DNA of 64,000 bases from a virus: the IMG/VR virus record IMGVR_UViG_3300023084_000004; one strand, 5' to 3'. This document shows, piece by piece, positions 1,946-58,283 of the stretch. Made by a program: the position numbers and the translations under genes. Each line of letters starts with the position of its first letter. Position 1 is the first letter of the stretch. The notes under the pieces are model-generated. The model was not told the DNA's origin. It searched no databases and saw nothing but the letters and a program-made list of their open reading frames with translations.

Positions 1946-3088
1946 ATGCACACGATAATTGATAAGATTTATCAAAAAGAATTAAAGCGCCAACAAACAA
2001 CAATTGAGCTTATTGCATCTGAGAATTTCGCATCAGATGCTGTTATGAAATTATGTGGTTCTGAATTTACAAACAAATATGCCGAAGGTTATCCTGGTCG
2101 TAGATATTATAATGGCTGTGATCAAATGGATGAAATTGAATCATTAGCAATTCAAAAATTAATAGACATTTATGATTGTAAATTTGCAAACGTTCAACCA
2201 CACAGTGGTGCTAATGCTAATCTTGCAATCTATAATGCATTCCTTAAACCAGGTGATAAAATTCTTGGAATGGATTTAGCAAGTGGCGGTCATTTAACTC
2301 ATGGTGCTCCAGTTACAATTAGTGGTAAATTATATGATGCTTATTCTTATGGTGTTTCTGATGATGGTTGGTTAGATTATAATAAAATACGTGATATCGC
2401 ATTAAAAGTAAAACCAAAACTTATTATTGCTGGTGCATCAGCTTATCCGCGACAAATTGATTGGTATCTTTTTAGAGATATTGCAGATGAAGTTGGTGCA
2501 TATCTTATGGTTGATATGGCTCATTATTCTGGTTTAATTGCAGGTGGTGCTTATGTAAGTCCGATACCATGCGCAGATTTTGTAACATCAACAACGCATA
2601 AAACTCTTCGTGGGCCGCGAGGTGGAATTATATTATGGAATAATCCAGATTATACTAAAAAAATTAATAGTAGTATTTTTCCAGGCACTCAAGGTGGGCC
2701 ATTAATGAATATGATCGCAGGTAAAGCACAAGCATTTCTTGAAGCTGATACAAAAGAATTCGATATATATTCTAATAAAGTTGTACAAAATGCTCAAGCC
2801 ATGTGTGAAGTTTTTCATCATTCAAAAGATATATTAGTACAAACACATGGAACTGATTCACATATTATTTTGCTTGACTTAAGTAAATCAAAATATTCTG
2901 GAAGAGAAGCTGCGGATTTACTTGAAGAAAATGGTATTACTGTTAATAAAAATGGTATACCAAATGATCCACGACCTTTTATGGAAACAAGTGGTATTCG
3001 AATTGGTACAGCAGCAGAAACAACACGTGGAAAAACAAAAGAAGACTTTATAAAAATTGCGGAGAAGATTTTAGAGATACTTGACTGA
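1946..3088 (+). CDS. glyA: Serine hydroxymethyltransferase
   Basis: IELIASEN, NKYAEGYPGRRYYNG, QPHSGA, SGGHLTHG, PLP lysine in TSTTHKTLRGPRGG. Confidence 0.97.
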   Translation: MHTIIDKIYQKELKRQQTTIELIASENFASDAVMKLCGSEFTNKYAEGYPGRRYYNGCDQMDEIESLAIQKLIDIYDCKFANVQPHSGANANLAIYNAFLKPGDKILGMDLASGGHLTHGAPVTISGKLYDAYSYGVSDDGWLDYNKIRDIALKVKPKLIIAGASAYPRQIDWYLFRDIADEVGAYLMVDMAHYSGLIAGGAYVSPIPCADFVTSTTHKTLRGPRGGIILWNNPDYTKKINSSIFPGTQGGPLMNMIAGKAQAFLEADTKEFDIYSNKVVQNAQAMCEVFHHSKDILVQTHGTDSHIILLDLSKSKYSGREAADLLEENGITVNKNGIPNDPRPFMETSGIRIGTAAETTRGKTKEDFIKIAEKILEILD

Positions 3089-4567: not shown

Positions 4568-5247
4568 AAGCTTATATCTTAAAAATCAATACTCCTATCT
4601 CAACACAATATGCAAAAATATGTGCAGATAGTTGTGATAAAGTAGGTTTAAAAAGAGAATACGTTCAAGGTTATCAAAATATGACTGGACGTGCAGCTTG
4701 GTGTTTAACTGGTATTAAACAAAGTTTTTATGAACCTATAAGATATATAGCTAATCCTACACCTTCTCAAAAAGCAAATGCTTGTAGTGCAGGACATGGT
4801 AAAATATGGAAAATGATTGCAGAAGGTGATGATGATGTCGGTATTGTATTAGAACATGACGCTATCATATTGCATAAACCCAATATAGAAATACCTGATA
4901 ATTGCATTGTTGTATTAGGATATAAATTAACAGACCCATCAAGATATGATCATCAAAGAGCAGGTCCACCTGAAGAATTAATAGATATTGATGGACACGA
5001 AGGTGCGCATGCATATATGATGACAAAGAAAACTGCACAGTTTTTAGTAAATGAAATAGAACAAAGAGGCATTTTAGGTGCAGTAGATAATGCATATTTT
5101 ATTCGAGGACAACGACAAACAGCATTACCACTAAAAATTATGTCACCAACACCAGCTCTTGGTTGGTTAAGAGAATCAACAATCTGGTCACAAAGTGCTA
5201 ATGTTAACTATGAATTTATATCCAGTTTTTCAAAATATTATAAATAA
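4564..5247 (+). CDS. Glycosyltransferase family 25-like protein
   Basis: ACSAGHGKIWKMI...IVLEHDA and GAHAYMMTKKTA resemble GT25 motifs. Confidence 0.6.
   Translation: MKAYILKINTPISTQYAKICADSCDKVGLKREYVQGYQNMTGRAAWCLTGIKQSFYEPIRYIANPTPSQKANACSAGHGKIWKMIAEGDDDVGIVLEHDAIILHKPNIEIPDNCIVVLGYKLTDPSRYDHQRAGPPEELIDIDGHEGAHAYMMTKKTAQFLVNEIEQRGILGAVDNAYFIRGQRQTALPLKIMSPTPALGWLRESTIWSQSANVNYEFISSFSKYYK
5239..5246 (+). promoter_or_regulatory. T4-type late promoter
   Basis: TATAAATA about 40 nt upstream of the 785-aa ORF. Confidence 0.7.
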
Positions 5248-14007: not shown

Positions 14008-14678
14008 TGGTAGTAGATTTATTTTTAGTTTTCAGTTTTATTAAAAGGCTTGTAAAGCCGTTTAAAAACTGGCCAGCTTATAAATTAGGAATCATAGACG
14101 GAAAAGGTAATATCCTTATTCGTCGTAGAGATTTTACTAAGGCTGAGCAGCGCAAAGCTTTTGGTATATTTGACCAACTAATTTTAAATCTTAAAAAGCT
14201 ATTAGCTAAATTACCAGGTGGTTCTACTAGACTTGCTACTTATGCTGCAGCTCTATGGTTAATTAAAGAATCAGAAAATTATAGAAATCAAAATGGTGTC
14301 TTATTAGAAGACGTTGATTTATCTGAAGATTTTCATAATTCTTTCTTAGACCGCTTCGTTGAAGAGTATGGAGATATACTCGCAAATGAAGAAATTAAAT
14401 TAGAAGAAGCTAAAAAGAAAGTTTCTCCTAAAGATAGAAAAGAACTCAGTAAATTGCTTATCGATTATAAAGTTCAAGGTAAGACAGGCACTGAAATACG
14501 AACAGCTGTAGAAGATTGGCTTAGACAAAAAGGTTATATGGACGAAGAACCAACTGTTAATGTTGGTGGTGGTGCTATTGCAGGATTAGGAGTTGGAGCA
14601 CAAGGTGAACCTGGCGTATCTAAGAAATCTCAAGGTAAATATAAAAAGAAAAATTTTATTGACTTTATGTCAAGATAG
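14007..14678 (+). CDS. Conserved T4-like-phage hypothetical protein
   Basis: FIKRLVKPF..WPAYKLGIID.KGN N-terminus; NVGGGAIAGLG tail. Confidence 0.75.
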   Translation: MVVDLFLVFSFIKRLVKPFKNWPAYKLGIIDGKGNILIRRRDFTKAEQRKAFGIFDQLILNLKKLLAKLPGGSTRLATYAAALWLIKESENYRNQNGVLLEDVDLSEDFHNSFLDRFVEEYGDILANEEIKLEEAKKKVSPKDRKELSKLLIDYKVQGKTGTEIRTAVEDWLRQKGYMDEEPTVNVGGGAIAGLGVGAQGEPGVSKKSQGKYKKKNFIDFMSR

Positions 14679-17605: not shown

Positions 17606-17643
17606 CAGTTGACATTTCACATAAACTAGTATATAATAACAAT

Positions 17644-18264: not shown

Positions 18265-18293
18265 TTGACATCTATACCAACCTATGGTATAAT
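18265..18293 (+). promoter_or_regulatory. sigma70-type promoter for the primase-thyX-nrd operon
   Basis: TTGACA-17-TATAAT. Confidence 0.75.
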
Positions 18294-18324: not shown

Positions 18325-19338
18325 ATGATTGATTTTACTGACATACAGTATGCGCAGACACTCGGTGGACGCTTAGACCAGTTTCGTATTAGGTCTACTA
18401 ATCCATATAAAATTAACTTCAGATGCCCTCTCTGTGGTGACTCACAAAAGTCACGAACAAAAGCAAGGGGTTGGCTGCTTGAGAAAGAAAACAATTTGTT
18501 CTACTATTGTCACAATTGTGGAGCAAGTCAATCCTTTTCCTACTTTCTTAAGACGGTTGACCCTCTTGCATTTAAAGACTATGTTTCTGAAAAATTTATC
18601 AATAAATACAAAACTAAAGACAAGCCTATACTTGAAGGAATCAAATTTGAAGCGCCTCAGTTTACTAACAATAGTACACTAAAAAAGATTAAAAAAATCT
18701 CACAATTGGCTTGGAATCATCCCGTAAAAACATATATAGATAAGAGGAAGATTCCTTCGAATCATCATTATCGTCTTTACTATGCGCCAAAATTTAAGGC
18801 ATGGATTAATGGTATAATACCAGATAAATTCTCGAATATAGACAAAGATGAACCTCGATTAGTGATACCTTTTCTTGATGAGAATAAAAAAATATTCGGA
18901 GTGTCGGCCAGAGGATTTGATCCCGCGGGCATAAGGTACATTACTATCATGTTTGATGATCGACCTAAAATCTTTGGATTAGATAAGGTTGACTTCAAAC
19001 GACCATATTATGTTGTGGAAGGTGCTTTAGATAGCATGTTCCTCAAAAATTCTGTTGCAATGGCAGGAGCGGAAGGAAATACATCAGCGCTCAAACATGC
19101 AAATGAAAATGCGATATTCGTTTTCGATGCGGAACCTCGAAATAAAGAGATTCATAAACGTATGGAAAAAATTATAGAACAGGGCTATAAAATTTGTATA
19201 TGGCCTAAAGATGTTCCAGGTAAGGACATCAATGAAATGTTTCTTAATGGTCTTAATAACGTTGAAACAATTATTAGTCAAAACGTTTATAAAGGTCTAG
19301 AAGCAAAACTGAAATTCACTGAATGGAGAAAATTATAA
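18325..19338 (+). CDS. gp61: DNA primase, T4 gp61 family
   Basis: NFRCPLCGDS...YYCHNC Zn ribbon; VVEGALDSMFL TOPRIM; VFDAEPRN. Confidence 0.95.
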   Translation: MIDFTDIQYAQTLGGRLDQFRIRSTNPYKINFRCPLCGDSQKSRTKARGWLLEKENNLFYYCHNCGASQSFSYFLKTVDPLAFKDYVSEKFINKYKTKDKPILEGIKFEAPQFTNNSTLKKIKKISQLAWNHPVKTYIDKRKIPSNHHYRLYYAPKFKAWINGIIPDKFSNIDKDEPRLVIPFLDENKKIFGVSARGFDPAGIRYITIMFDDRPKIFGLDKVDFKRPYYVVEGALDSMFLKNSVAMAGAEGNTSALKHANENAIFVFDAEPRNKEIHKRMEKIIEQGYKICIWPKDVPGKDINEMFLNGLNNVETIISQNVYKGLEAKLKFTEWRKL

Positions 19339-20024
19339 TGCATGCTAAGCTGATTAGCTATTCACAACCTTCTGAAGAAATCTTAAAGGAAGGTTTATCT
19401 AATGTACAAGACCTTATTGCATTTGCAGCAAGAGTCTCAAATCCTTCTAATCAATTTAACACTGAAACCAGTGAAAAACTTCTTAACTATCTTTCTAAAC
19501 ATAAACATTGGTCTCCATTTGAAATGGCAAGTGCATGTATAGAAGTTGAAACTACAAGAGATATCGCAAGACAGTTTTTACGTCATAGATCATTTTCATT
19601 TCAAGAGTTTAGTCAAAGATATGCAAATCCTGTAGAAGATTTAGAATTCGTTACAAGAGATGCAAGACTACAAGATCAGACTAACAGACAAAATAGTATA
19701 GATATAGATTCCAGTAATGAAAATCATAGACGAATTAATGAAAATTTTAGAATGAAGCAAATGGAATTTATAAGAAAATCAAAAGAATTATATAATTGGG
19801 CAATTGATCAAGGTATCGCTAAAGAACAAGCGCGGGCAGTTCTTCCTGAAGGACTTACCGTATCAAGATTATATGTTAATGGAACACTTCGATCATGGAT
19901 TCATTTCATTGAATTACGAAGTGGAAATGGAACTCAAAAAGAACACATGGAACTAGCCAGAGAAATCGCATGCGTTATTGCTAAGATTTTTCCTATGGTT
20001 GGAAACTACGTACAAGTACACTAG
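19338..20024 (+). CDS. thyX: Flavin-dependent thymidylate synthase
   Basis: KHKHWSPFE; RHRSFSFQEFSQRY ThyX motif; KEQARAVLP. Confidence 0.95.
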   Translation: MHAKLISYSQPSEEILKEGLSNVQDLIAFAARVSNPSNQFNTETSEKLLNYLSKHKHWSPFEMASACIEVETTRDIARQFLRHRSFSFQEFSQRYANPVEDLEFVTRDARLQDQTNRQNSIDIDSSNENHRRINENFRMKQMEFIRKSKELYNWAIDQGIAKEQARAVLPEGLTVSRLYVNGTLRSWIHFIELRSGNGTQKEHMELAREIACVIAKIFPMVGNYVQVH

Positions 20025-20033
20025 GAGAATTAA

Positions 20034-21824
20034 ATGCAGCATTTAGGCATAGAAATCGACAGTAAAAGAGATAAAATATTGTCAGAGCAGTCTTTTAAAT
20101 TATTGAAAGACTATTATTGTAGAGAAGACGAAAAGTCACCTCAACACGCTTTTGCTCGAGCGGCTGTTGCTTTTTGTGGTAATAATTTAAATTTAGCACA
20201 ACGAATCTATGATTATGTTTCTAAAGGCTGGTTTATGTATGCTTCTCCTGTCCTCTCGAATGCCCCAATTAAAGGAGAAGAGGTAAAGGCATTACCTATT
20301 AGTTGTTTCCTTACCTATGTTCCAGACACACTAGAAGGTCTTATAGATCATACTGCTGAACTACGCTGGTTATCAGTGAAAGGTGGTGGTGTTGGTGGAC
20401 ATTGGAACGATATTCGTGCCGTTTCAAAGAAAGCTCCAGGACCTATGCCTTTTTTACATACAGTTGATGCTGATATGGTTGCATATCGTCAAGGTCGTAC
20501 AAGAAAAGGTTCATACGCGGCATATATGGATGTCGATCATCCTGATATAGTAGAATTTGTAAATATGCGTATTCCTACAGGTGATGTTAATCGTAAATGC
20601 CTTAATTTGCATCACGCTGTTAATATTACAGATAAGTTTATGGAAGCTGTTGAAAAAGGCGAGGATTGGAATTTATTAGATCCTAACGATAAATCAGTAC
20701 GTGATACAATGAAAGCTCGCAAACTATGGGAACATATTCTTGAAACAAGATATAGAACAGGTGAACCATATCTTAATTTTATTGATACTGCAAATCGTGC
20801 TTTACCTCAAACACAAAAAGATTTAGGTTTTACAATTAAAGGATCTAATTTATGTAATGAAATCCATCTCGTAACTAATGAAGAAAGAACTGCTGTGTGT
20901 TGTTTATCTTCAGTTAATTTAGAAATGTATGATGAGTGGAAAGATACAAATATGGTTAAAGACCTTATTGTATTTTTAGATAATGTATTACAGTTCTTTA
21001 TTGATCATGCAGGAGATGAAATTTCAAAAGCACGTTATAGTGCGCAACAAGAAAGATCATTAGGTTTAGGTGCGATGGGATTACATTCATTTTTCCAAAA
21101 ACATAATATTCCTTTTGAAAGTCAAGAAGCCGTAGCAGTTAATGATGAAATTTTTGAATACATTAAGCAACGTGCAGTCGAAGCAACAATGACTATGGGC
21201 AAACAACGCGGTGAAGCTCCTGATATGAAAGGTACAGGAAGACGTAATGCTCATATGTTAGCAATTGCTCCAAATGCAAATAGTTCTATGATTGTAAATA
21301 CAAGCCCAAGTATTGAACCTTGGAAAGCAAATGCATTTACTTCAAGAACAAGAGTAGGATCTCATCTAAATAAAAATCCATATCTTGAAAAAGTATTAGA
21401 AGAATTAGGCAAAAATACTGATGATGTATGGAGTTCCATTATTACAAATGGAGGAAGTGTTCAACACCTTGATTTTCTAGATGATCATCTTAAATCTGTA
21501 TTTAAGACAGCAATTGAATTAGATCAACATGTATTGATTAAGTTAGCAGGAGATCGTCAAAGATATCTATGCCAAGGTCAATCATTAAATATTTTCTTCC
21601 CTGCAGGTGCAGATAAAAAATATCTCCATTCAGTACATTATCAAGCATGGAAGCAAGGTTGTAAAGGATTATATTATTTAAGAACAGAGACATCTAATAG
21701 AGCAGAAAACGTGGCTGAGAAAATCAAGCGCGAAAAGTTAGATGATATTATTAACCCAAACGCAATTAATTTCAGCAACGGTACGGAGGAACAGCAGGAT
21801 GATTGCATCAACTGCCAAGGATAA
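20034..21824 (+). CDS. nrdA: Ribonucleotide reductase class Ia alpha subunit (no obvious ATP cone)
   Basis: GSNLCNEI, AIAPNANSS, GLYYLR, C-terminal CINC. Confidence 0.95.
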   Translation: MQHLGIEIDSKRDKILSEQSFKLLKDYYCREDEKSPQHAFARAAVAFCGNNLNLAQRIYDYVSKGWFMYASPVLSNAPIKGEEVKALPISCFLTYVPDTLEGLIDHTAELRWLSVKGGGVGGHWNDIRAVSKKAPGPMPFLHTVDADMVAYRQGRTRKGSYAAYMDVDHPDIVEFVNMRIPTGDVNRKCLNLHHAVNITDKFMEAVEKGEDWNLLDPNDKSVRDTMKARKLWEHILETRYRTGEPYLNFIDTANRALPQTQKDLGFTIKGSNLCNEIHLVTNEERTAVCCLSSVNLEMYDEWKDTNMVKDLIVFLDNVLQFFIDHAGDEISKARYSAQQERSLGLGAMGLHSFFQKHNIPFESQEAVAVNDEIFEYIKQRAVEATMTMGKQRGEAPDMKGTGRRNAHMLAIAPNANSSMIVNTSPSIEPWKANAFTSRTRVGSHLNKNPYLEKVLEELGKNTDDVWSSIITNGGSVQHLDFLDDHLKSVFKTAIELDQHVLIKLAGDRQRYLCQGQSLNIFFPAGADKKYLHSVHYQAWKQGCKGLYYLRTETSNRAENVAEKIKREKLDDIINPNAINFSNGTEEQQDDCINCQG

Positions 21825-21828
21825 GAAA

Positions 21829-23034
21829 ATGGAAGTTTTAATTTATACTAAATCAAATTGCCCTTTCTGCGAAAAGGCAAAGGCTTGGTTTACACAACAT
21901 GGATTTGGTTATACACAAATCGTTTTAGATGATGAGGAACAAAGACTCGCGTTTTATCAAAAGCACAGTAATGGTAAAGCAATAAGATCTGTACCACAGA
22001 TTTGGATTGATGATAAACATATTGGAACATATAACGATTTAATGGCAATTGCTGATACTCTTGTAAAGAAACAAGGTGGCCTTATGGAATTTAGTGAAAC
22101 ATATAAACCATTTCACTATCCTTGGGCTGTCGATATTACAACAAGACATGAAAAAGCACATTGGATTGAAGATGAATTAGATTTATCAGAAGATGTGTCT
22201 GATTGGAAAGGTGGAAAAATCATTCCAATCGAAAAAGAATATATTACAAATATCTTAAGATTGTTTACTCAGTCTGATGTTGCTGTAGGTCAAAACTATT
22301 ATGATCAATTTATTCCTAAGTTTAAGAATAATGAAATTCGTAATATGTTAGGTTCGTTTGCTGCTCGAGAAGGTATTCACCAAAGAGCGTATGCATTATT
22401 AAATGAAACTCTTGGATTACCTGATAGTGAATATCATGCATTCTTAGAATATTCAGAAATGGCAGATAAGATTGAATATATGCGTAAGGCAGATACAAAT
22501 ACTTTACGTGGTCTTGGGTTATCTCTCGCTAAATCTGTATTTAATGAAGGTGTTGCTCTCTTTGCATCTTTCGTTATGTTACTTAACTTTCAACGTTTCG
22601 GTAAAATGAAAGGTATGGGTAAAGTTGTTGAATGGTCTATTCGTGATGAGTCTATTCACGTTGAAGGCAATTCAAAACTATTTAAAGCTTTTTGTAAAGA
22701 ACATAGTCGTATTGTTGATAATGATTTCAAACGAGAAATTTATGAAATGTCAAAAGATATTGTAGATCTTGAAGATAAGTTTATTGATCTTGCATATGAG
22801 ATGGGAGAAATCGATGGTCTCCAAAAATCTGAAGTAAAACAATATATAAGATATATTACAGACAGAAGGCTGCTTCAGCTTGGTATGAAAACTAACTTTA
22901 AGGTAAAAGAAAATCCATTACCTTGGTTAGAGTGGGTTCTAAATGGAGCTGATCATACAAACTTCTTCGAAAACCGTGTAACTGAATATGAAGTTGCTGG
23001 CTTATCAGGAAATTGGGACGAAGCTTACGCCTAA
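21829..23034 (+). CDS. nrdB: Glutaredoxin fused to ribonucleotide reductase class Ia beta subunit
   Basis: N-terminal CPFC...SVPQIWID glutaredoxin, then HW..DE, E..H and RDE..H di-iron motifs, NFFE tail; start moved to ATG 21829. Confidence 0.93.
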   Translation: MEVLIYTKSNCPFCEKAKAWFTQHGFGYTQIVLDDEEQRLAFYQKHSNGKAIRSVPQIWIDDKHIGTYNDLMAIADTLVKKQGGLMEFSETYKPFHYPWAVDITTRHEKAHWIEDELDLSEDVSDWKGGKIIPIEKEYITNILRLFTQSDVAVGQNYYDQFIPKFKNNEIRNMLGSFAAREGIHQRAYALLNETLGLPDSEYHAFLEYSEMADKIEYMRKADTNTLRGLGLSLAKSVFNEGVALFASFVMLLNFQRFGKMKGMGKVVEWSIRDESIHVEGNSKLFKAFCKEHSRIVDNDFKREIYEMSKDIVDLEDKFIDLAYEMGEIDGLQKSEVKQYIRYITDRRLLQLGMKTNFKVKENPLPWLEWVLNGADHTNFFENRVTEYEVAGLSGNWDEAYA

Positions 23035-23044
23035 AAGGTGAGCG

Positions 23045-24253
23045 ATGATTGACAAAAATTATTTTCAAGATGTAATCGATACTCTTAAGCACGAAGGTAA
23101 GTATCGTGTTTTTAATGATATAGTACGAGAAAAAGGCAATTTTCCTAAAGCAACTTGGTATGGCAAATACTCTCCCAAGTCTATAGTTAATTGGTGTTCG
23201 AATGACTATCTTTGCATGGGTCAAAATCAATTTGTTATTGATGCCATGCAAACTGCATTAGATAAAACTGGAAGTGGTAGTGGAGGTACACGTAATATTG
23301 GTGGTACTTCTCATTTTCACGTAACACTCGAAAAAACTCTTGCACAATTGCATCAAAAAGAATCTGGACTTCTATTCACTTCTGCTTATGTAGCAAATGA
23401 ATGGACAATGATTGCTTTGTCTCGTATTATTCCAAATATTTGTTTTGTTTCTGATAATAAAAATCATGCATCTATTATTATGGGAATTAAACATTCTCGA
23501 GCTAATAAGATTATTTGGGAACACAATAATATGGAAGAGCTAGAATTGGCATTACAAACATGTCAAATGGCTGGTCAAACACCATGTATTGTATTTGAAA
23601 GCGTCTATAGTATGGACGGTGATATTGCACCTATCAAGAAAATTTGTGACCTCGCAGACAAATATAATGCAATTACATATATTGATGAAGTACATGCGGT
23701 TGGTTTATATGGAATAACAGGAGCAGGATATTGTGAAAAACTCGGACTCTCAGACAGAATCGACATCATCAACGGAACATTGGGTAAAGCGTTTGGCTGC
23801 CAAGGTGGATATATCGCCGGTGATGGAATTGTTCTTGATGCTATTCGTTCCGTTGCTTCTGGTTTTATATTTACTACTAGCATATCTCCGGTAATGTGTG
23901 CAGGAGCAATTGCTTCTATAAGATATTTACAGGAACATCATGAGTTAAGAGAACAACATCAAGAAAGAGCTCAAACACTGCGTGAACTTTTTATAGATAA
24001 TAATATAGAAGTACATGAAGCTTCTACAACGCATATTCTTCCCGTAATGGTAAGAAATGCAAAAGCATGTAAAGCAATGTCAGATAGGTTATTAAACGAT
24101 TATGGAATTTATATTCAACCAATTAATTATCCAACAGTCGATGTTGGTACTGAACGGCTTAGAATTACACCAACACCATTACACACCAATGGTATGATGG
24201 AGGATCTAGTTATTGCGTTAAGAAAAACGTTTAAACAAGAATTACAATTATGA
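23045..24253 (+). CDS. hemA: 5-aminolevulinate synthase (C4/Shemin pathway)
   Basis: [68 protein letters not shown]. Confidence 0.93.
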
Positions 24254-25074
24254 AATGGTTAACACTTTTCACTTCACTTACACTCGCAGGTACCGCTGCG
24301 TATTTTAGTATTATTGGTCTTATGACAATATTTAGTGGTGCTGCCTTATCAATTGCTTTTATGGCGAGTGTTTTAGAATTTGGTAAAATCGTATCAGCCG
24401 CATGGTTGCATTACGAATGGGATAGAATTAATAATTTAATAAGAGCATATTTTACTACAGCAGTACTGGTACTTATGCTCATTACAAGTATGGGTATTTT
24501 CGGATACTTATCAAAAGCACATATCGATAGTTCATTGACTTCAGATAGCTATTCACTTGAAGCAAGCATTGTTGATAAAAGATTAGAAGGAAAACAATTA
24601 CAGCTCAATAATTTAACAGGAAGATTAGAAAATTTAGATTATGTTCTTCAAACAAGTAGACCTGAAGATAGAAATTATGTGAACAGAGTACAAACAGAAG
24701 AACGAAATGAAATTAATGCGGAGATAGATATATTAGTTTCAGAAATAGTCTCTTTAAACGAACAAAAAATGCCTATTCAAAAACTTCAACTTGAACAAGA
24801 AGCTGAATTAGGCCCAGTAAAATATATTGCAGATATGATTTACGGAGAAGAAGCAGCATCGTATTATGACAACGCAGTACGATGGGTTATTCTTACAATC
24901 ATATTTGTATTTGATCCTCTTGCGATTATGTTGTTGATAGTTTCAACAGCAGCATTTAAAAGAGATCGTGAACGCCCTGCGAAACCTTTGGTTGACGAAA
25001 AACAAATAATGAATATGGAAATCGAAGAAAAACGTGGTGGATTAACAACAACAATGAGTAGGAGACCGATATAA
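24250..25074 (+). CDS. Multi-pass membrane protein with coiled-coil loop
   Basis: Three N-terminal TM segments, coiled coil, [20 protein letters not shown]. Confidence 0.75.
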
Positions 25075-25490
25075 TGAATTTGAAAAAAGCGGGTTGGCTG
25101 GGTTTAGGATTTTTAAGTTTAGGAGTAGCATACATTGGAGTCGTAATGCCAGGAATACCTTTTAGTATTCCAGCAGTATTTGCAGCATATTGTTTTGCAA
25201 AGAGTTCAGATAAAATGCATGCATGGTTATACAATCATAAATTGTTTGGACCATTCCTTACAAACTGGGAACAGAAAAAAGTGTTTCCACTTAAAGCAAA
25301 ATATGCTATGGTAAGCTTTATGACATTAGCATTAATTATCATGTGGTTCACCACAGGTAATATTAAAGCTTTAATGTGGTCGGGAGCCTTTATGGCATTT
25401 GGTGCATGGTGGGGTTGGCAATATCCGTCAAGTCCAGAAGAATATGATCAAAGAGTTAAAGAAGGCAAAAAGATAGGTCTATTTAAGTAA
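25074..25490 (+). CDS. ybaN: YbaN/DUF454 family membrane protein
   Basis: GVVMPGIP...A.YCFAKSS...WL.NHKLFGP...W...P.KAK. Confidence 0.8.
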   Translation: MNLKKAGWLGLGFLSLGVAYIGVVMPGIPFSIPAVFAAYCFAKSSDKMHAWLYNHKLFGPFLTNWEQKKVFPLKAKYAMVSFMTLALIIMWFTTGNIKALMWSGAFMAFGAWWGWQYPSSPEEYDQRVKEGKKIGLFK

Positions 25491-26786: not shown

Positions 26787-27025
26787 TAGTTACGATATAT
26801 GGTACCTCAAGCTGTGGTGCTTGTATTTCTGCAATGGAATTGTGTAAAAAGAAAGGCGTAAAATTTAGTTACAAAGATATTGGAATTAGTAAATATTATA
26901 TTGAACTACAAGAACATTTAGTAGGTACAGATATAGAAATGACAAAAATTCCTCACATAATGGTTGACAAACGCTACATTGGATGTTATAATAGACTCAA
27001 AGAATTTTTTTGGGAGTTAGTATAA
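26783..27025 (+). CDS. Glutaredoxin-like protein
   Basis: CGAC active site; KIPHIMVD..YIG. Confidence 0.75.
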   Translation: MIVTIYGTSSCGACISAMELCKKKGVKFSYKDIGISKYYIELQEHLVGTDIEMTKIPHIMVDKRYIGCYNRLKEFFWELV

Positions 27026-58208: not shown

Positions 58209-58283
58209 GGCCCGTTCGTCTAGTGGTTAGGACACATGGTTTTCATCCATGCAACAGGAGTTCGATTCTCCTACGGGCTGCCA
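58209..58283 (+). tRNA. trnE: tRNA-Glu (anticodon UUC) with encoded CCA
   Basis: Acceptor GGCCCGT/ACGGGCT, D arm, anticodon stem CATGG/CCATG with loop TTTTCAT, T arm AGGAG-TTCGATT-CTCCT, CCA end. Confidence 0.95.

Follow-up and report, generated by a model that had tools for sequence, protein, structure and literature searches.

Why does a T4-like phage carry a gene for 5-aminolevulinate synthase (ALAS) among its nucleotide-metabolism genes, and what does the gene say about the host? The locus lies in a 64,000-nucleotide stretch of viral DNA (hereafter, the window), in which a preliminary description placed a phage-encoded ALAS directly after nrdB, took the host to be an alphaproteobacterium, and proposed that the phage boosts tetrapyrrole supply during replication. 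Viral alaS genes have been found in marine and freshwater phage contigs, in some cases on their own and in others accompanied by hemO and pcyA/X (Wegner et al., 2024, Nat Commun 15:8783; PMC11480375). The same study defined a virus-only ALAS clade that is about 55% identical to alphaproteobacterial ALAS, and showed that a freshwater viral homolog (CB_2) rescued an E. coli ALA auxotroph and made 5-aminolevulinate (ALA). The remark that this is a rarely discussed auxiliary gene is therefore out of date, the class having been described and shown to be active in 2024, and the boost to tetrapyrrole supply is itself a published hypothesis (PMC11480375). The alaS gene of the window is a further example of this published, active gene class. 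The paper and its supplements make no mention of a position after grx-nrdB, an early-type promoter, a DUF454 partner, or insertions of alternative oxidase (AOX), Cpn10 and 2OG-oxygenase genes, and it is this context that we describe here.

The contig is an uncultured T4-like myovirus

The window makes up the final 64 kb of a 137,426-bp IMG/VR virus record, rated 64% complete by CheckV; it differs from the reverse-complemented contig positions 73427-137426 in 25 of the 64,000 letters. The contig encodes a T4-type major head protein, scaffold, portal, terminase, primase and PhoH. It is an uncultured T4-like myovirus, and the claim that the ALAS is phage-encoded stands on these genes and on the classification of the record as a virus. 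A profile search for psbA gave no match on the contig. The GC content ranges from 0.31 to 0.39 across the window and is 0.34 at alaS, which fits any AT-rich aquatic host. The stretch recurs in many salt-marsh metagenomes and in one marine metagenome, and reaches a depth of about 90x in salt-marsh samples.

The ORF behind nrdB appears to encode a functional ALAS

The viral ALAS gene (valaS or alaS; 23045-24253, + strand) begins with ATG and encodes 402 amino acids. It follows the gene for a glutaredoxin-NrdB fusion (21742-23034, + strand; PF00462 and PF00268; NCBIfam PRK12759, 685 bits vs. a cut-off of 649), whose TAA stop codon occupies 23032-23034. The 10-nt spacer between the two genes (23035-23044, + strand) contains, as read from the sequence, a Shine-Dalgarno-like AAGGTGA, and the placement of the ORF directly behind nrdB was thus confirmed. 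The PRK12759 alignment begins at residue 30 of the listed grx-NrdB ORF, and the true start of that protein is probably near this residue.

The alaS product matched the NCBIfam ALAS equivalog model (TIGR01821) over its full length with 557.5 bits, more than 200 bits above the cut-off of 338.55. Models for the sister enzymes scored under their own cut-offs (Kbl, 314 vs. 460; BioF, 311 vs. 426; SPT, 234 vs. 640), and a CqsA-type model was likewise well under its own. The best matches in the PDB were two bacterial ALAS, 7x98 (434 bits) and that of Rhodobacter capsulatus (2bwn, 388 bits), followed by eukaryotic ALAS, with Kbl structures scoring at most 211 bits. When aligned to 2bwn, the protein keeps the PLP lysine (Lys248), Arg21, Asn53 (R. 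capsulatus 54), His141 (R. capsulatus 142), Asp214, His217, Thr245, an 11-residue loop and an arginine equivalent to R. capsulatus Arg374. All of the residues that contact PLP, glycine or succinyl-CoA in the R. capsulatus enzyme (R21, N54, T83, N85, H142, D214, H217, T245, K248 and R374) are present, and these catalytic columns do not vary across the 77 viral and 109 bacterial ALAS compared. The earlier reading of the ORF as a full-length ALAS with PLP-binding and ALAS-specific motifs is borne out by the model score and by the intact catalytic residues. Judged from these features of the sequence, the ORF is apparently a true and functional ALAS, not Kbl, BioF or SPT, and the window's own protein is predicted to be active.

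The position of the R. capsulatus heme-site residue His342 is occupied by Ala in the viral protein, and no Cys follows residue 342, leaving no equivalent of Cys400. It has been suggested that viral ALAS escapes heme feedback because these two residues are missing (PMC11480375). We considered loss of the heme-feedback site as a virus-specific adaptation and rejected it, because most of the sampled bacterial ALAS share the loss: His is found at the 342 position in 2 of 109 bacterial sequences, and a Cys in the tail in 15 of 109.

Viral ALAS group in one clade

The preliminary description had named BioF and Kbl as the families from which its ALAS should be separated by phylogeny. In an IQ-TREE analysis of 72 rows (45 viral representatives, 25 bacterial sequences and a Kbl/BioF outgroup), the protein groups with ALAS, and Kbl and BioF fall far outside (split support 99, branch length at least 5); SPT is absent from the tree and is excluded by HMM scores only. 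All 45 viral ALAS fall together (SH-aLRT 100, stem 1.35) inside the alphaproteobacterial ALAS, in a tree without an identified SAR11 ALAS, and the viral label changes once (support 100). This monophyly is partly the product of selection, since patterns derived from the alaS product of the window were used to retrieve the viral loci. Relatives with 65-90% identity occur in 119 IMG/VR stretches, and the best identity to a bacterial ALAS is 57%. An ALAS-like match was found in 298 of 401 sampled genomes from the class of genome G003 (presumably Alphaproteobacteria; the tally includes one unpublished genome, G245, from which no conclusion is drawn). Among 50,697 GenBank records, no clearly cultured phage carried ALAS or DUF454.

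alaS sits in a block of nucleotide genes with early-type signals

Upstream of alaS, the block consists of genes for DNA primase (18325-19338; PHROG 47, 246 bits), the thymidylate synthase ThyX (19323-20024; PF02511, 147 bits), the ribonucleotide reductase large subunit NrdA (20034-21824; PF02867, 379 bits; NCBIfam PRK09102, 800 bits) and grx-NrdB. These genes and alaS are all on the + strand and abut or overlap one another. Two more genes follow on the same strand: ORF274 (24250-25074), encoding a 274-aa membrane and coiled-coil protein, whose start overlaps the alaS stop (ATGA), and a gene for a small inner-membrane protein of the DUF454/YbaN family (25074-25490; PF04304, 97 bits), which at its start shares 1 nt with the stop codon of ORF274. 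The order primase-thyX-nrdA-grx/nrdB-alaS-ORF274-DUF454 is conserved in about 50 IMG/VR loci. PHROGs holds no family for ALAS, ORF274 or DUF454.

Perfect sigma-70 consensus promoters (12/12) on the + strand at 17609-17637, 18265-18293 and 26964-26992 frame the early gene block. The second of them (TTGACA-17-TATAAT with TG) is a candidate for the promoter of the operon. T4-type late TATAAATA sites are found in the window only at 5239, 37492, 53802, 61763 and 63177, with none from 5247 to 37491, and the interval between the 18265-18293 promoter and alaS contains neither a late promoter nor a strong or convincing terminator. This combination of a sigma-70 promoter with no late promoter or terminator before alaS makes it likely that the gene is expressed early or in the middle of infection, together with the nucleotide genes. 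In three metatranscriptome libraries, contigs span the nrdB/alaS junction; they are compatible with co-transcription and also with DNA carry-over, strand and timing not being given, and gaps in their cover (e.g. 23512-23845) carry no meaning.

The spot behind nrdB is a variable island. Relatives have insertions here: between alaS and ORF274, either an alternative oxidase of 187 aa (PF01786, 238 bits) or a 2OG-Fe(II) oxygenase, and between ORF274 and DUF454 a Cpn10 co-chaperonin (AOX, Cpn10 and 2OG-oxygenase island loci: L014:7200-7763, L026, L033, L034, L040, L043, L048; L017:8024-8287; L033:7196-7792). ORF274 gave no match in Pfam or PHROG searches, and its neighbours in the ESM Atlas are viral ‘putative DUF4407’ clusters (score 0.97). 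It was considered as a heme-related partner of alaS and set aside, being DUF4407-like, confined to the one sub-clade that includes the window, and, in relatives, moved out of place by inserted AOX or Cpn10 genes. It is probably an unrelated passenger.

The window also carries glyA (1946-3088, + strand; PF00464, 470.6 bits), which encodes serine hydroxymethyltransferase, so that glyA and thyX share the window with alaS; in a relative (G411), glyA lies downstream of the alaS island. Serine hydroxymethyltransferase makes glycine, the substrate of ALAS, and methylene-THF for ThyX, and glyA and alaS may be functionally linked in this way.

DUF454 accompanies alaS in viruses

Among viral alaS loci with enough downstream sequence, DUF454 lies downstream on the same strand within 2.6 kb in 49 of 62, and these 49 include a sub-clade with a different ribonucleotide reductase and no ORF274. 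Conversely, alaS lies upstream in 64 of 68 viral DUF454 loci (linkage loci L002-L063 and L203-L282). The idea that another heme gene replaces alaS at the four ALAS-less viral DUF454 loci was rejected, as the upstream genes there are unrelated (PAAR/CHAP, aldolase-like). The pairing is virus-specific in our sample, because none of 95 bacterial ALAS loci has a DUF454 neighbour. In GenBank, the DUF454 matches in ‘phage’ records all resemble bacterial contigs or unannotated fragments. Much of this linkage could reflect shared descent, so any functional tie between DUF454 and alaS is putative.

To our knowledge, DUF454/YbaN has no assigned function. The E. coli ybaN gene belongs to the conserved Fur regulon (PMC7157518, PMC10164565), iron starvation induces DUF454 in Avibacterium (PMC7970244), and DUF454 is found together with heme oxygenase in the vicinity of T11SS hemophore loci (bioRxiv 10.1101/2024.09.26.615229). 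The virus-only pairing with ALAS thus offers a concrete handle on an iron-regulated, uncharacterised family.

Host affinities of the contig are mosaic

The major capsid protein is 65.6% identical to that of Sinorhizobium phage phiN3, 64% to that of Melnitz, and 61.6% to that of HTVC008M. The capsid, portal and terminase proteins are all closest to the Sinorhizobium phiM12-group phages (53-66%), with further similarity to Caulobacter phage Cr30 and a Rhizobium phage; for portal and terminase, the phiM12 group was best and no pelagiphage appeared among the 14 matches listed. In these sequence comparisons the core proteins are not closest to HTVC008M or Mosig, as would be expected of a pelagimyophage, and a SAR11 host would still be compatible. 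The nrdAB genes are closest to those of the OM43 phage Melnitz (73% in nucleotides; NrdA 72.5% and NrdB 79.7% in amino acids), with pelagiphages and pelagipodophages also among their relatives. The affinities of the contig are therefore a mosaic of phiM12-like structural genes and Melnitz/pelagiphage-like nucleotide-metabolism genes.

The alaS gene itself says little about the present host, because it belongs to its own long-stemmed viral clade and is at most 57% identical to bacterial ALAS. Phages with valaS have also been predicted on gammaproteobacteria, and marine valaS contigs were placed with pelagimyophages by gp13 (PMC11480375). The host is thus not to be inferred from a phage alaS alone. 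An alphaproteobacterial host, as the preliminary description had it, is plausible and in our judgement somewhat favoured: the phiM12-like structural genes speak for it, whereas the nearest nrdAB are those of an OM43 phage and the ALAS clade is virus-only.

Relatives carry hemO and bilin reductase genes, and the contig a giant fibre

Profile searches for heme oxygenase (hemO) and bilin reductase (pcyX) found no match on the 137-kb contig; nothing follows from this absence, since the place where synteny would put them is past the end of the contig. The close relative G411, in which alaS is 83% identical, aligns collinearly with the window starting at G411 position 14331 (window position 824). 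There, hemO (205 aa) and FDBR (233 aa) genes abut with a shared stop/start (L198:2284-3602), adjoin a class-3 lipase, gp59 and gp32, and lie 31 kb upstream of the alaS locus. Nothing on the window's contig corresponds to this 14-kb block, not even to its core gene gp32, and the closest large contig (G456) is truncated in a similar manner.

Outside the window, the same contig encodes a giant fibre protein, a 3379-aa ORF with 11 KCxRD sites (G000:C1:24439-34578, locus L201). When one KCxRD domain was compared with the PDB, 15 of the 16 best matches were to phycocyanin alpha; the alignment keeps register across the bilin site at Cys84, but the E-values are weak (0.025-0.6). Homologous arrays were present in all five large alaS-bearing viral contigs tested (six with the window's contig), three of which also carry hemO and FDBR. 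Among cultured phages, the array matched only tail fibres of Synechococcus phages. Phycobilisome-family profiles, including Pfam PF00502, had no match on the contig.

Alternative explanations

The protein might be another alpha-oxoamine synthase (Kbl, BioF, SPT or CqsA-like), or the gene might derive from a host through a mis-binned or chimeric contig. The family does share one fold, and all of its members match PF00155, but the ALAS model alone passes its cut-off, by the wide margin given above, and the long branches of the tree set Kbl and BioF apart. Phage genes flank alaS on both sides, on one strand and with a phage-like GC content, and alaS turns up beside these neighbours in over 100 viral contigs, so this explanation is already effectively refuted. 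Another explanation concerns the host. OM43 is not an alphaproteobacterium, and like other non-alphaproteobacteria it uses the C5 route, for which Glu-tRNA is the substrate. In such a host, the phage ALAS would replace ALA synthesis, not boost it, and would free Glu-tRNA for translation, as Wegner et al. proposed for gammaproteobacterial hosts (PMC11480375). We hold this as a tentative possibility. The genes beside alaS, nrdA and nrdB, are nearest Melnitz (73% in nucleotides, 72-80% in amino acids), the 34% GC fits OM43 as well as SAR11, and the window has its own tRNA-Glu(UUC) (58209-58283), which may be coincidence. However, the capsid, portal and terminase proteins are nearest those of alphaproteobacterial phages, none of thyX, alaS, ORF274 and DUF454 is present at the corresponding position in Melnitz, and the gp13 grouping of marine valaS contigs with pelagimyophages (PMC11480375) also points away from OM43.

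A further explanation concerns the fate of the ALA, which could mainly feed a phage heme-to-bilin route, with the chromophore loaded onto the 11 phycocyanin-alpha-like domains of the giant fibre and DUF454 assisting at the membrane with the handling of iron or tetrapyrroles. We consider this unlikely. The contig itself encodes the array, its domain aligns in register with phycocyanin alpha at Cys84, and arrays accompany ALAS in every large contig tested, with hemO and FDBR in three of these five and also in G411; the restriction of cultured-phage matches to Synechococcus tail fibres points the same way, and the 2024 study, which mentions paralogs of phycobiliproteins, does not settle what viral bilins are for (PMC11480375). 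Yet each phycocyanin match is weak, PF00502 has no match on the contig, no bilin lyase was found, the contig carries neither hemO nor pcyX, and the five array contigs are not independent because they are related to each other. Moreover, pelagiphage Mosig has hemO and pcyX (PMC11480375), but no Pelagibacter phage record matched the array. Since alaS looks early and the fibre late, a link between them would be only metabolic. That alaS, DUF454 and the hemO/pcyX of relatives make up one phage programme that produces bilin for the 11 Cys domains of the fibre is similarly improbable. If true, phage particles in a non-cyanobacterial system would be pigmented and might respond to light, and DUF454/YbaN would acquire its first function, in the handling of tetrapyrroles or iron. 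That alaS and phycocyanin-like domain arrays occur together in all large contigs examined suggests a testable answer to a question that the 2024 study left open: the use to which phages of heterotrophs put heme and bilins.

Discussion

The identity of the enzyme, its intact active site, its phage context, its clade membership, the conserved synteny and its presence in RNA libraries are directly supported; we infer the activity of the protein, the timing of its expression and its physiological purpose. The explanation that we prefer, and consider very probably correct, is that alaS encodes a functional PLP-dependent ALAS of a virus-specific clade and has long been part of the accessory gene set of an uncultured T4-like myovirus of estuarine and marine waters, where it is expressed early with the nucleotide genes and raises the supply of ALA. 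Transcription would start at a host-type (sigma-70) early promoter that also serves primase, thyX and nrdAB, and translation would be coupled to that of two membrane-protein genes, including the one for the conserved partner DUF454. Early in infection, the phage enzyme would convert glycine and succinyl-CoA to ALA, CoA and CO2 and so raise the supply of ALA, the rate-limiting entry to tetrapyrroles. The HemB-to-HemH enzymes of the host may then turn the extra ALA into heme, which could serve respiration or become bilin via phage hemO/pcyX, as seen in relatives. The value of the locus lies in its context, in that the DUF454 pairing and the phycocyanin-like arrays sharpen two open questions.

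Comparison with known systems

The viral protein resembles R. capsulatus ALAS (2BWN) and the 7X98 ALAS in length, aligns with them from end to end, and shares the PLP lysine K248 and the contact residues. It differs from the R. capsulatus enzyme in having Ala for the heme-binding His342 and no equivalent of Cys400. The gene downstream is a clear member (97 bits) of the family of E. coli YbaN (Pfam DUF454), which is linked to iron in bacteria; in contrast to bacterial DUF454, the ALAS neighbourhood is seen only on the viral side.

Methylophilales phage Melnitz (MZ577097) and the pelagimyophages share the backbone of primase, nrdA, nrdB and small ORFs, followed by an S21 gene. Because Melnitz has this backbone without thyX, alaS, ORF274 and DUF454, we regard these four genes as insertions into it.

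The closest parallel is with the viral alaS genes of Wegner et al., which likewise encode full-length ALAS on T4-like marine or estuarine contigs, form a virus-only clade with intact catalytic residues, lack the R. capsulatus heme-site residues, and have relatives with distant hemO and pcyA/X (a ‘broken cassette’). In contrast to those cases, alaS is alone on this contig, with the hemO/pcyX slot beyond the contig end, and the structural genes resemble those of Sinorhizobium phiM12-type phages more than those of HTVC008M.
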